Source of the DNA: Promethearchaeia archaeon
GTDB taxonomy: Archaea; Asgardarchaeota; Lokiarchaeia; Sigyniarchaeales; SOKP01
Direction of reading: 5' to 3'
Assembly: GCA_046497275.1 (NCBI GenBank)
Contig: JAWOFX010000113.1
Coordinates: 10,869-42,868, forward strand
DNA: 32,000 nucleotides
Part shown: piece after piece, positions 4,308 through 29,296 of the stretch
How the letters are laid out: each line of letters begins with the position of its first letter
Numbering within the stretch: the stretch's first letter is position 1
Notes under the pieces: model-generated
Seen by the model: the letters and a program-made list of their open reading frames with translations, nothing else
What the model was told of the DNA's origin: nothing
Database searches by the model: none
Position numbers and translations under genes: made by a program

Positions 4308-5216
4308 TTAATTTTTGAGATCCTCTACTAAATGAATGAGGTATTTTTTCAAATGTTTATATGGTTTCAAATCTCCACTAAATTCATTATATAATACTTC
4401 TTCATTTGAAATATTTTGTTTTAACTTGATAAAGGCTCGAAAAATTTGATCAAAATTTCCAGATGCAACAAAATCTAAAGAATAGCCATTAATATTTCCA
4501 TATAATATAATAATTTTATAGTTTTCGTCTCTTAAATCATTTAAATGTATTTCTTTTACTCTTGTTTCTGCTCTAATAGCAGTATTCATCTCAATAGTGG
4601 CAAGTTTTGCAGATAATTTTGAACAAAATACTTCAATAATATTCTCATCTGAATTACTACCGTTTAAGCTATAAAAAAACTCTGGATGAAATATTTTAGA
4701 AATTATAGGTAATCCTTGAGTAGAAATACCGCAGTAGAGAATTTTATTCTGAGCATTTAAGGGTTGATTAATTATCCCCAATTTTTGCCTTATATCTTCC
4801 GATTTTAATATATTATTATATTTCATTTTTAAGTAATCTGTCGTTAAATTAATCATTTCCTTAAATACAGAATTTTCTGAAGCTTTTTTCAAAAGATCTA
4901 TGGAACTATAAGATGATTCTACCTTATTATGAAAATCTTCTAACATACTATAAGTTTCTTCAGAATTGAAACTGAATTTACCACTTATACAGTAAAAAAT
5001 ATTATTCTCTCCCGATATAATATGTTTAATTACAATACGTTCAGTTCCATTATTATCATTTTCGAAAAAGATATTATTCAAACGCCAGATATTATTTGGA
5101 TTAATACCTTCAACTAATTTTTGAATAAATAGAACTGTTTCAAACAAGGGATATTTTTCTTTATTGGAGCAATAGAGAATATCATTATTAAGAATTACTG
5201 CGAATCCAGAAATCAT
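4308..5216 (-). CDS. Hypothetical protein, possibly two tandem longin-like domains
   Basis: 302-aa ORF; both halves open with a hydrophobic beta-strand then a helix (MISGFAVILNNDILY..; ILYCGISTQGLPIISK..). Fold is inferred. Confidence 0.55.
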   Translation of the reverse strand: MISGFAVILNNDILYCSNKEKYPLFETVLFIQKLVEGINPNNIWRLNNIFFENDNNGTERIVIKHIISGENNIFYCISGKFSFNSEETYSMLEDFHNKVESSYSSIDLLKKASENSVFKEMINLTTDYLKMKYNNILKSEDIRQKLGIINQPLNAQNKILYCGISTQGLPIISKIFHPEFFYSLNGSNSDENIIEVFCSKLSAKLATIEMNTAIRAETRVKEIHLNDLRDENYKIIILYGNINGYSLDFVASGNFDQIFRAFIKLKQNISNEEVLYNEFSGDLKPYKHLKKYLIHLVEDLKN

Positions 5217-8571: not shown

Positions 8572-9378
8572 TTAGGAATCTTTTTTAAGAATAGAATTGA
8601 TATTTTTGATAACTTTTTTTAATGAGTATTCCGCCATACCTAAAGTACTAACTTTAATATCAAAAATGAGTACAATAAAATAGTATTCATTAACATATCC
8701 CGAATAGATAAGCTCATTCTGAGAAGAATAAAATAATTTTAAAATCGAATTATTGCATATTTGAATCCTAAAATCTAAGTCCTTCAATAATTCTGCTAAT
8801 TTAACTGGTTTTAATGAACTATAAATAATATTTCCTTTGTTATTTAAAAGAATGAGGCCTTCTAATTTATTATTATGAAGAAAATCTATTAAATATCTTA
8901 TAATTGAATATTCCTTGGTTTTATTTTCAATACAGTATCCATTATTTTGTACTAAATTATCTACAAAGCTATTTATTATATCATGGTGGACATTTTGAAA
9001 ATTTATATTGATTCCGCTTTCTTTAATGTATTTTCGAACTCTAATATCTATTTTATTTACATAATCCTCTAATAGGAGTAAATTCACATGAGAATCACAT
9101 AGAAATCCATAGAAGAAGTTATCTCTCTGGATAATAACAATTCTAATATTATCCATGTCTATTGTTTTGACCTTTTTTCCAACCATTTCTATAGAAAAAG
9201 AGATTAAAGCAGAGCAAAAAGCTGTGATTAAATTGTCTTCCATTTTGTATTTATTTGAATAATTTCTAGCATATAAACACATACCTGCATTATTGAAAAT
9301 GAAAAAATAATGGATATTTATTTCTTCTTGAAAAATTTCGATATTATTATCTACTTTCGATGTATTTTCCACAGTCAC
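8572..9378 (-). CDS. Longin-like plus roadblock-like two-domain protein
   Basis: N-terminal half FFIFNNAGMCLYARNY..LITAFCSALISFSIEM (longin pattern); C-terminal half LEGLILLNNKGNIIYSSL (roadblock pattern); GTG start. Confidence 0.6.
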   Translation of the reverse strand: MTVENTSKVDNNIEIFQEEINIHYFFIFNNAGMCLYARNYSNKYKMEDNLITAFCSALISFSIEMVGKKVKTIDMDNIRIVIIQRDNFFYGFLCDSHVNLLLLEDYVNKIDIRVRKYIKESGININFQNVHHDIINSFVDNLVQNNGYCIENKTKEYSIIRYLIDFLHNNKLEGLILLNNKGNIIYSSLKPVKLAELLKDLDFRIQICNNSILKLFYSSQNELIYSGYVNEYYFIVLIFDIKVSTLGMAEYSLKKVIKNINSILKKDS

Positions 9379-12843: not shown

Positions 12844-14298
12844 TTAAAATGAATCAAATATTCCTATTTTTCCCTCTATAGGTTTTAGGATTTTAATACC
12901 TTCATTATCGATGGAGTATTCTATAAAATGTTTAGAATGATTCGAATCTCTCATTTTTAATATACCTATGCCACGAGTCATTAGACCGTCGCGTTCAAAA
13001 TATCTTAATAAAATTATTGCATCAGCAAGAGTTGAGATATGTCCCATTCCTTTATTAAAATGATCTGAAAATGTAGGAGTAGTCGTTGTAAAGATTGCTA
13101 TAATATTATTTTCTCGGATGAAAAGAAAAAGATTAATGAGTGATTGTCTAAAAGTAAGGTTGCTAGTTATTCGTTCTAAAGCAGAAATACTGTCAATATA
13201 AATTCTATCCGGTTTAAAGGATTGTATTTTTGATTTCATATCCACAATAAGCTCTTCGATTCCTTGAGATTCTGGATAAATACAGTTCAACATAAATATA
13301 CCATCATTTTCCGGTTGTTCTAAATCTATATTCCAATTACGAGCTTTCTGGAGAATCTGTTCTCGACTCTCCTCAAAATTGAACATAATGCATTTTTCCC
13401 CATTTTGTAAAGACCCCTCTAACAATAGAAGTGTTATTAATGTTTTACCTGTTCCTGTTTGACCAGAAATCAGGATTGATGAGCCCTCGAAGAACCCTCC
13501 TCCCACCATATCATCGAGTTCGCTATAACCTGTAGATTCTCTTTCCCGCTTGGCAGGTAGTTCATTAGGATTTCTTTCAAATGAAATAATTATTATTCCT
13601 TCATTTTTTTTGATGGTGAAGGACTCTCTACCCTTTTTATGAGGCACTCCTCGATATTTTAAGATTTCAATTGTTCTTCTACGATGCTCTTCAAAAATAG
13701 TATTCTGGAGGAGGATTACATTATCACTAACGAAATCAAGAATATTATAATGTGAATCTTTTCCAAATTCTTCATATTGTTCCATTGTGATGATAGAGGT
13801 TACCGATAACGACTTTAAACATGATTTTAATCTGATAATTTCCTTCCGAACAATTGATTTATCAGGAAATCTATTGAATAAAACAGCGATAGAATCTAAT
13901 ACTACACGTTTTGCATTGATTTTTTCTACTGCATTCTTAATTCGAATAATTAAACCACTTAAATCATAATCGCCTCGTACTAGAAAATCATCCTCTATAC
14001 GCGGGGAAATATCAACAAACTCCCAAAATCCTGAATCCTTATATTTTTGAATATCTAATCCAAAATCTTTCATATTAATTATTATATCTTCGGGTGATTC
14101 TTCAAAAGTGATGAAGACTCCAGGATCTTTTGAATGGTTTATTCCTCCAATGAGAAACTGTACACAAAAGGTACTTTTCCCGCTGCCAGGCGTACCTGAA
14201 AGTAACGTCATTCTATTTTCCGGTATTCCACCCATCGATAAAATATCGAATCCATCAATTCCACTCGGAATTTTTTTTATGCTTTTCATAAAATTCAA
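12844..14298 (-). CDS. kaiC: Circadian clock protein KaiC (double RecA-like domain)
   Basis: CI P-loop GTPGSGKST, FEE, RRTIEILKYRG; CII P-loop GQTGTGKT, FEES, DSISAL, phosphosite HISTLAD, LKMRDS. Likely ATG start at 14289. Confidence 0.95.
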   Translation of the reverse strand: MNFMKSIKKIPSGIDGFDILSMGGIPENRMTLLSGTPGSGKSTFCVQFLIGGINHSKDPGVFITFEESPEDIIINMKDFGLDIQKYKDSGFWEFVDISPRIEDDFLVRGDYDLSGLIIRIKNAVEKINAKRVVLDSIAVLFNRFPDKSIVRKEIIRLKSCLKSLSVTSIITMEQYEEFGKDSHYNILDFVSDNVILLQNTIFEEHRRRTIEILKYRGVPHKKGRESFTIKKNEGIIIISFERNPNELPAKRERESTGYSELDDMVGGGFFEGSSILISGQTGTGKTLITLLLLEGSLQNGEKCIMFNFEESREQILQKARNWNIDLEQPENDGIFMLNCIYPESQGIEELIVDMKSKIQSFKPDRIYIDSISALERITSNLTFRQSLINLFLFIRENNIIAIFTTTTPTFSDHFNKGMGHISTLADAIILLRYFERDGLMTRGIGILKMRDSNHSKHFIEYSIDNEGIKILKPIEGKIGIFDSF

Positions 14299-26912: not shown

Positions 26913-28349
26913 TTGACTTCTCATTTGGGTGAAGCTATAAAACATAAAACTCCTATATTAAATAATAATATTTTACTCGTCTTTCTAAGTTGGGGGAAAT
27001 GTGTTCAATCCCAGCTTTCTGGATATTATAAAAATCAACATGTGAATAAAATCGATACAGACATAATTATCTTTTTTAGTGGCTCAGAATCCTCGGTTTC
27101 AACCAACAAGGGATACCTTCATTGTTTTTTTGGGTTAGGATATTATTATAATAAATTTGAAATAAAATCTGGGAACTATATAACAGATAAAAGAGAATTG
27201 ACAGGTATAATATTATCTGATTTTGTGTATGATTATTTAGCTACTTCAAAAAGTATTACTTTCCAAAATGAGGAGGATATCATTTTTACTGATCTGATTG
27301 TAAAAGTCCCGATAGATTTATCATCAAAATCAAATACTAAAAGAACATTTATTAAGGGAACTTTAATGAGAAATCTATTTATTCCATATAAAAATATCTT
27401 TTTAGAAATGATGGATAATATTAAGCAAGAAGAATCTTATCAAATTAATAAGAATGGGCATAAGATTTTATGTGCTAACTGGGATAATTTTAATTCGATT
27501 TTAATCTCGGAAAATATGAAGGAAGAAAAAAAGAATGAGTATATTAATCCTACTGCTGGCATAAATAATATTAGTAAAGGAGTAGATGGTTATTTAAAAA
27601 ATTATTTTAATGAGTCGGATAAGATAAAAATAAAACAAAATATCGACAAGTTAAAGGAAGTCTACTCAACAATAAAATTCGATCCATCTTATTTATTTTC
27701 GATAATTGAAAACGCATCTAAATATCTGATAAATCAAGATTATTCGGAATTAATCCAGAAAAGTTTGGGAGGAAAAAATGGTTCAAAATCTTTGAAAAAA
27801 CAGATTTTATTATCTGCTCAAGAGAGAGAAAATGATATTGCTCCTTGGCCAAATGAATTCAAACTAAATAAAAAAGATTTATTAAAGTCTCCATTACAAG
27901 TGGACAATATAGATAGGAAAAAGATGGAAATGAACCTAAATCATAATTCTAATCTTGATAACGAGGATATGGAGAGGTATAACACTCCAAAAAAAGAAGA
28001 CTTTATCTTGCGCAACTTGAGGCCTCGAATAGTTACACAGAAGAAACTCCCAGAATCTGATATGGACAGTATTAAGGAAATTTTAAATTATTTAATTTTA
28101 GTAATTGAAGAAGATTATGATATGCCCTCCATAGGTAAAGCCTTCGAACTTGCTCATAAACACATAAGGAACATCGCTTTATATGTTGATTATATGTGGG
28201 AGATGAGTAAATTAGCAAACATTTATAAGAGAAAAAACCCAAATTTGGGTTTGAGTCGTAAAGAAAAAGAAGATTTATTAAGAAAGGTTCACAGGTGGAT
28301 TGAATATTCCTCAAATAAAAATCAATTAATGTTGGATCCGCAAAAATAA
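26913..28349 (+). CDS. Hypothetical protein (globular N-domain, low-complexity linker, helical C-domain)
   Basis: 478-aa ORF, TTG start preceded by GAGGTA; 14 bp upstream of the profilin-like gene. Confidence 0.65.
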   Translation: MTSHLGEAIKHKTPILNNNILLVFLSWGKCVQSQLSGYYKNQHVNKIDTDIIIFFSGSESSVSTNKGYLHCFFGLGYYYNKFEIKSGNYITDKRELTGIILSDFVYDYLATSKSITFQNEEDIIFTDLIVKVPIDLSSKSNTKRTFIKGTLMRNLFIPYKNIFLEMMDNIKQEESYQINKNGHKILCANWDNFNSILISENMKEEKKNEYINPTAGINNISKGVDGYLKNYFNESDKIKIKQNIDKLKEVYSTIKFDPSYLFSIIENASKYLINQDYSELIQKSLGGKNGSKSLKKQILLSAQERENDIAPWPNEFKLNKKDLLKSPLQVDNIDRKKMEMNLNHNSNLDNEDMERYNTPKKEDFILRNLRPRIVTQKKLPESDMDSIKEILNYLILVIEEDYDMPSIGKAFELAHKHIRNIALYVDYMWEMSKLANIYKRKNPNLGLSRKEKEDLLRKVHRWIEYSSNKNQLMLDPQK

Positions 28350-28363
28350 TTGAAAGAAGAATT

Positions 28364-29059
28364 ATGACAAGTTATAAATCAGCAATTAAATATTTGAAAA
28401 AATCTTTTCCAGATGTAATGGAAACAGCATTTATCTCGGGAGAGGGGAAGATTTTATATTCTAATGATAAGTGGAGCATCAAAAATGATTTAGGAGCTCT
28501 CTTATCAACATGGTTTAGCCAAAATGGTCAATATGTGAATCTTAATGGAATAAGATATTCTATCCTTCAGATGGAACCTGAACGTTTTGTGGCAACCAAT
28601 CGAAAAAAAAAAGGACATTTAGTTGGAGCTGCAACTCCAAGTTTGGATAAATTCCTTATCGCCCATATAAGCCCAAAATCCAAGAATTGGTTTCATGGCG
28701 CCTATCCTACCATTGCTAGAGTGGCTGCTATGATTCAGAGCGGATTTAAAATCGATATGAAAGATAATGCGAAACCAACACGAACTAAGCATAAAAAGAA
28801 AATAAAAGAAAGCTCATTGGAGAAAGATTATTTTACTTCATTCATCGGATCTGAAAATAACCAAAATACTTATCTTGTACAGCAAAATCCTCAAAGAGAT
28901 TCCTACTTAATTCAAGAAATTGAAAATTTATTAGAATGGATAAAAGACCCAGATGGATTAGCTGGATTTATAAGATATTATCTTAGTATCAATGATTCAA
29001 TTATGATATCTAAATTATCGGAGATATACCAAAGATTTTATAAAATATTTTATGAATAA
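28364..29059 (+). CDS. Asgard profilin-like protein with C-terminal extension domain
   Basis: AFISGEGKILYSNDKW, LNGIRYSILQMEPERFVATN..KGHLVGA resemble Lokiarchaeal profilins; about 100 extra C-terminal residues. Confidence 0.75.
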   Translation: MTSYKSAIKYLKKSFPDVMETAFISGEGKILYSNDKWSIKNDLGALLSTWFSQNGQYVNLNGIRYSILQMEPERFVATNRKKKGHLVGAATPSLDKFLIAHISPKSKNWFHGAYPTIARVAAMIQSGFKIDMKDNAKPTRTKHKKKIKESSLEKDYFTSFIGSENNQNTYLVQQNPQRDSYLIQEIENLLEWIKDPDGLAGFIRYYLSINDSIMISKLSEIYQRFYKIFYE

Positions 29060-29194: not shown

Positions 29195-29296
29195 GGGCCG
29201 ATGGTCTAGCTGGAATGACGTCCGCTTGACGTGCGGAAAGATATCTTGAATAATAGATATCCCGTAGGGTCGGGAGTTCAAATCTCCCTCGGCCCA
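29195..29296 (+). tRNA. trnV: tRNA-Val(GAC) with 29-nt intron (29239..29267) at position 44/45
   Basis: Acceptor stem GGGCCGA/TCGGCCC, anticodon arm TCCGC-TTGACGT-GCGGA, T-loop GTTCAAAT; removing the intron restores AGGTC. Confidence 0.92.

Follow-up and report, generated by a model that had tools for sequence, protein, structure and literature searches.

Locus and architecture of the fused profilin

The window, that is, the whole 32,000-nt stretch of DNA analysed here, contains on its forward strand an open reading frame with an ATG start (28364..29059) that encodes a 231-aa protein composed of a profilin domain (aa 1–126; 28364..28741), a variable linker (aa 127–177; 28742..28894) and a three-helix C-terminal domain, termed the C-domain (aa 178–231; 28895..29056). 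In the AlphaFold2 model, the profilin domain and three helices of the C-domain (residues 180–194, 196–208 and 212–230) are confident, and residues 131–175 have pLDDT values below 50, so that the linker is predicted to be disordered. The first-pass annotation, made from the sequence alone, had proposed a multidomain protein with a profilin-like domain of about 125 aa, a basic linker and a C-terminal helical domain. Both motifs that it quoted are found in this reading frame, and the model bears out its architecture as a profilin fold, a disordered linker and a three-helix domain spanning residues 180–230. It had missed the near-universality of the C-domain in the order, a second fused paralogue, a stand-alone version of the C-domain and a linked upstream gene. 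Sequence searches returned 63 homologues of the 231-aa protein, nearly all full-length and 39–81% identical, of which those with names are mostly hypothetical proteins of Lokiarchaeota/Promethearchaeota. Moreover, a DNA contig obtained in another, unrelated study covers positions 27414–28883 with no letter differences and no gaps. Given the full-length homologues and this contig, the fusion is real and not an assembly artefact. Metatranscriptome contigs overlap the gene in parts and one crosses the gene junction, but such contigs cannot show transcription; promoter and terminator scans at the gene gave only chance-level signals.

By fold and by sequence, the N-terminal domain is a true profilin. 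Residues 1–126 match the Odin profilin 5zza in a sequence search (E 2e-8) and the Odin, Loki and Thor profilins 5yed, 5zza and 5zzb in a profile search (E 1e-11). When the AlphaFold2 model was searched with Foldseek, profilins occupied all of the top 43 rows (5zza: E 1.8e-11, TM by target 0.89), and structural comparison with VIA gave a Z score of 19.6 against the Odin profilin (rmsd 1.9, 119 aligned). A roadblock-like domain, the outcome that the earlier annotation had itself set against its reading, was not what the comparison returned: profilins scored Z 12–19.6 and the best roadblock 12.3, and in the predicted structure a three-strand motif (aa 62–88; 28547..28627) replaces half of the roadblock central helix, so membership of the Roadblock/LC7 family was rejected. 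Pfam PF00235 gave no hit to the window protein, and the canonical profilins of the same genome likewise score below its cut-off. Eight residues (G62, R64, Y65, S66, T78, N79, G84 and H85) match the Odin profilin in the alignment, and the three-strand motif touches actin in solved Asgard profilin complexes (PMC10933270). It is from these conserved motifs that we infer actin binding by the window profilin.

The gene immediately upstream (26913..28349, forward strand), called from its open reading frame, homologues and fold model, ends 14 nt before the profilin ATG and encodes a 478-aa protein, which represents the short form of a family (about 460 aa) specific to this order. Its confident fold model combines a long-stranded beta domain with a C-terminal four-helix bundle; neither Pfam, NCBIfam, Foldseek nor Atlas returned a match, and profile comparison revealed no likeness between this family and the C-domain. 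A Vps28-CTD assignment for the last four helices (Z 10.3, rmsd 2.4, 88 aligned, 4% identity) was rejected because its score lies below the threshold of about 13 applied to helical bundles. Long forms of the family end in a long, charged tail, a Glu/Arg coiled coil whose end is basic, which rules them out as profilin fusions.

Other features of the window include a tRNA with a GAC anticodon at 29195–29296 (forward strand; Rfam E 1e-10, missed by ARAGORN), in which some 30 nt are inserted behind the anticodon arm, as would fit a non-canonical intron. By eye, two reverse-strand proteins (4308–5216 and 8572–9378) resemble tandem longin-type domains, and a third (12844–14298, reverse strand) reads as a 484-aa KaiC-like double ATPase.

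A basic profilin subtype

In a tree of 85 profilin domains, the C-domain-bearing proteins grouped together with moderate support (80/86), separate from the canonical Loki profilins, although a few members of the group have other tails instead of the C-domain. The clade of the window protein, which we term subtype B, received support of 100/100. Profilin domains of this subtype are strongly basic, with a median net charge of +9, compared with −1 to −4 for the other fusions, the canonical Loki, the Pro2-like and the other Asgard profilins; the canonical Loki-type profilins are net acidic, with a median of −4. Subtype B also carries a specific, almost invariant insert, K105-x-K107-x-W109-x-H111 (28676..28696), which in the profilin fold follows the last strand and precedes the C-terminal helix. 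Across 36 homologues, column identity is 0.75 in the N-domain and 0.71 in the C-domain, as against 0.32 in the linker. Conservation is maximal at residues 61–90 and 101–120 (identity 0.82–0.94); the first block, the most conserved of the family, corresponds to the three-strand motif with its Odin-type residues G-x-R/K-Y-S, T-N and G-H, and the second contains the insert.

The linker is less constant. It ranges from 29 to 120 aa in the same 36 homologues, and its net charge exceeds +2 in 7 and is negative in 24. Thus, the basic linker described in the first-pass annotation exists in the window protein, but the aligned sequences place the basic tract in few lineages, and the membrane role implied for it is unsupported because the linker is acidic in most homologues. 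The conserved basic surface lies on the profilin domain itself and not on the linker. Asgard profilins have been reported to be subject to anionic lipids (PMC9433394), and the conserved basic surface is suggestive of phosphoinositide sensitivity. The basic face of subtype B would still bind something acidic, most simply actin and, competing with it, anionic lipids.

Profilin-like domains also open seven longer reading frames (245–861 aa; L130, L134, L137, L138, L145, L146 and L155) that lack the three-helix domain, in this order and in sister orders; Lokiarchaeia have multidomain profilins more often than is usually stated. On contig C84 of the window genome, a gene that reads as actin-like (L005:92–1231, forward strand) is directly followed by one for a 410-aa protein (L005:1492–2724, forward strand), possibly a profilin–transcription-factor fusion: its N-domain resembles a degenerate profilin, and it also contains a TrmB-type helix-turn-helix (Pfam E 2e-11).

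Distribution of the C-domain and data from cultured strains

Residues W192, G198 and L199 are invariant among 41 C-domain sequences, and 16 of the 53 positions hold a hydrophobic residue in 95% or more of the rows, which in our judgement exceeds what a 50-residue monomer is expected to bury. The domain is net acidic (mostly −1 to −6), and all three helices are amphipathic and rich in aromatic residues, with a hydrophobic moment of about 0.5. It has no Pfam or NCBIfam family; a PDB profile search yielded only noise, and the Atlas structural neighbours above TM 0.55 were members of its own family, with no villin headpiece in either search. A SAM domain was rejected on the basis of three long helices as against the five-helix SAM fold, with SAM_1 matching 2 of 41 members (best E 0.095), although a W..GL..Y/W likeness to SAM persists. 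A four-copy complex prediction scored 0.03, with the fold of the domain itself uncertain in that prediction and the score lying outside the two-copy calibration.

A profile of the C-domain detected it in 153 of the 154 genomes of the order, usually in two to three copies each, and in none of 246 other Asgard genomes sampled across the phylum. The window genome has three copies: the subtype B protein, a second fused profilin of 204 aa on contig C34 (subtype A; L002:1486–2100, forward strand) and a stand-alone protein of 53 aa on contig C169, recognized by its reading frame and the profile (L007:3929–4090, reverse strand). Here, as in most genomes, subtype A lies between TFIIB and a zinc-finger gene, which is probably the ancestral locus. 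The stand-alone gene (about 50 aa) has homologues of its own and is mostly flanked by the same two neighbours, a helicase gene and a gene for a DnaJ-like zinc-finger protein. In some genomes, among them those of L. ossiferum and MK-D1, the gene directly 3′ of subtype A encodes a conserved two-helix membrane protein (L083:3255–3989, reverse strand) with no family match; a gelsolin-like appearance of this neighbour was not confirmed on follow-up.

Searching other proteins for the domain recovered, besides the stand-alone copies and the second profilin paralogue, fusions to Ras-family GTPases in four clusters, one on a leucine-rich repeat (LRR) protein and one in front of a profilin, among 63 cluster representatives. 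One GTPase cluster has eight members and is further backed by a contig of 76 kb. These fusions mark the C-domain as a portable module, and the GTPase and LRR examples are rare and probably recent captures. A separate search for longer C-domain proteins found none, a weak negative given that the cluster-representative search did find some. In P0085, P0093, P0109 and P0114, Ras/Rab-like GTPases are followed by proline-rich linkers and then the three-helix domain (for example, L126:5001–6059, forward strand); the P0085 locus is rich in small GTPase genes, and the GTPase of P0114 comes with a weak gelsolin match.

The two cultured strains, L. ossiferum and MK-D1, lack subtype B; their subtype A proteins are UYP46361.1 and WP_147661710.1 (DSAG12_00584), respectively. 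In the L. ossiferum study (10.1101/2025.11.30.690169), UYP46361.1 appears as B35_Pro1, is listed as a profilin and was detected by proteomics, with a mean log2 value of 19.51, compared with 17.38 for the single-domain Pro2 and 21.69 for actin. The Lokiactin co-immunoprecipitation (co-IP) of the same study detected B35_Pro1 without significant enrichment (log2 0.31, P 0.17), whereas Pro2 was enriched (log2 1.07, P 0.0018), and its authors state that membrane-associated proteins are under-represented. From these values, the fused profilin is abundant but is not a strong soluble partner of actin in the co-IP. The stand-alone protein of L. ossiferum is UYP44705.1. Because the next accession, UYP44706.1, matches the mass of GNAMCCOK_01000 (39.8 kDa), we take UYP44705.1 to be GNAMCCOK_00999, which has a mean of 22.36 and stands at row 38 of the 3061-protein proteome, with actin at row 59 (10.1101/2025.11.30.690169). 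On this mapping, the mini-protein is apparently very abundant, above actin, although the intensity measure may be biased towards very small proteins. The co-IP rows listed do not include this protein, which is small enough to be easily missed.

A proposed docking role of the C-domain and its alternatives

We tentatively favour a reading that we hold to be just short of evenly balanced, in which the window protein would bind actin, respond to lipids and be clustered by its C-domain, a portable module that docks to proteins. On its motifs, the profilin domain would bind Lokiactin monomers through the usual barbed-end face and, judging from known profilin behaviour, its basic surface could place it under strong control by anionic (inositol-phosphate) lipids, which might either keep the profilin membrane-bound or set actin free at that site. 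The C-domain, on its flexible tether, would act as the docking module, joining copies of itself, the subtype A fusion, the abundant stand-alone mini-protein or a partner that they share, such that profilin–actin might be concentrated in a multivalent assembly instead of occurring as free monomer. The computed basis of this reading is fold, architecture, distribution, portability, charge pattern and gene linkage. In its support are the profilin fold, the Odin-like actin motif, the position of the insert, the charge of +9, the portable, acidic and hydrophobic C-domain, its presence almost throughout the order and the expression of subtype A above that of Pro2. It is weakened by the co-IP data, in which B35_Pro1 is not significantly enriched and the stand-alone protein is not among the rows listed, by the failure of structure and sequence searches to find a C-domain relative of known role, and by the rarity and recent look of the GTPase and LRR fusions. 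The properties of the C-domain fit the first-pass suggestion of a tether to "another complex".

The best-surviving alternative, although in our view unlikely, is that subtype B left actin regulation and that the remodelled basic face would serve to bind a dedicated partner, with the upstream protein of about 460 aa as the likeliest candidate, or lipid alone, as in its roadblock and longin cousins. Of the 154 genomes, 88 have subtype B, always in one copy (a count that includes two basal members at the subtype A locus), and in 53 of these 88 it adjoins the short-form upstream gene, separated by about 14–36 nt or overlapping it slightly. Conversely, 53 of 73 short forms but none of the 61 long forms lie beside subtype B, counts that cover listed places only, in fragmented assemblies and in kin genomes that are not independent. 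A dedicated partner is also favoured by the restriction of the almost invariant insert and the high charge to the subtype B clade, and by the lack of significant enrichment of the sister paralogue B35_Pro1 in the actin co-IP. Against it, the actin-face motif of subtype B remains Odin-like, the upstream protein is not markedly acidic, and 35 of 88 subtype B genes have none of the listed partners beside them, as 20 of 73 short-form genes have no subtype B gene beside them, again in fragmented assemblies.

Nearest to the membrane tethering of the original annotation is an amphipathic, in-plane membrane anchor, by which the C-domain would hold the profilin and the captured GTPases without prenylation; we regard this as improbable. 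The amphipathic, aromatic-rich character of its three helices would suit such an anchor, and in the GTPase fusions the C-domain follows a low-complexity, proline-rich linker at the position at which Rabs carry their lipid anchor. The under-representation of membrane proteins acknowledged by the co-IP authors also counts in its favour. However, the mostly negative charge of the domain is unfavourable for anionic membranes, it is confidently modelled as a three-helix unit, and an abundant, cargo-less stand-alone protein would be hard to explain. Least probable of all is a second, villin-headpiece-like actin-binding site that would let the fusion grip a filament and hold a monomer at the same time. 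The small size, conservation and helical make-up of the C-domain, its place at the C-terminus behind a flexible linker and the weak gelsolin match in P0114 speak for it, but villin headpieces bind through a basic patch whereas the C-domain is acidic, the fusion is not significantly enriched in the actin co-IP, and the stand-alone protein is not among the co-IP rows listed.

A bolder form of the docking reading, which we consider speculative and rank behind the dedicated partner and ahead of the membrane anchor, is that the C-domain is an order-specific assembly module. The stand-alone mini-protein would form a scaffold or oligomer that holds tethered profilins and captured GTPases as a fused, multivalent profilin–actin delivery device, with subtype B as its membrane-charged version, doing the job of VASP/formin-type polymerases. 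To our knowledge, such polymerases have not yet been found in Asgard archaea.

Asgard cells crawl with actin-filled protrusions, and machineries that recruit profilin–actin for nucleation have not been found there (PMC9433394). The tethered profilin that 153 of the 154 genomes of this order retain is a tangible candidate for organising actin in a lineage-specific way. On the mapping above, its C-domain also occurs alone as a protein that ranks among the most abundant of a cultured strain, and the presence of subtype A and the stand-alone protein in MK-D1 and L. ossiferum makes the candidate directly testable. Because the C-domain belongs to a single order, with no copy detected in the other sampled lineages of Asgard archaea, it informs Asgard cell biology more than eukaryote ancestry. 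Although B35_Pro1 is already known as a profilin, the extra domain, the stand-alone protein and the basic subtype may be new: the main texts searched, as far as available, do not describe them or mention a three-helix domain, a headpiece or the accessions, although a 2023 review of predicted Asgard profilin structures (10.1002/bies.202200119) may already cover the architecture.

Among known systems, the Odin and Loki profilins (5zza, 5yed/5yee and 5zzb) share the fold (Z 19.6 and 18.6) and the actin-facing motif residues with the window protein, but they are single domains without the KxKxWxH insert, the linker or the C-domain, all three of which it has; the Loki loop of the Loki profilins is in turn absent from it, as a gap in the alignment. 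Polyproline binding varies among Asgard profilins. The profilin of Leishmania (8c47) has an insertion at the same place as subtype B, the junction of the last strand and the C-helix, and contacts actin there (PMC10907219). That insertion is WH2-like and about 20 aa long, whereas the insert of subtype B comprises a few basic and aromatic residues. B35_Pro1 and DSAG12_00584 share the architecture of profilin, linker and three-helix domain, but belong to a different paralogue, subtype A, with a mostly acidic profilin domain and the TFIIB/zinc-finger locus. Finally, Ena/VASP-type proteins cluster profilin–actin, in that an oligomerizing module and a flexible linker concentrate it, and offer a functional analogy only: VASP recruits profilin through polyproline, whereas in the window protein the profilin is fused directly and oligomerization is putative, and we claim no homology to VASP.
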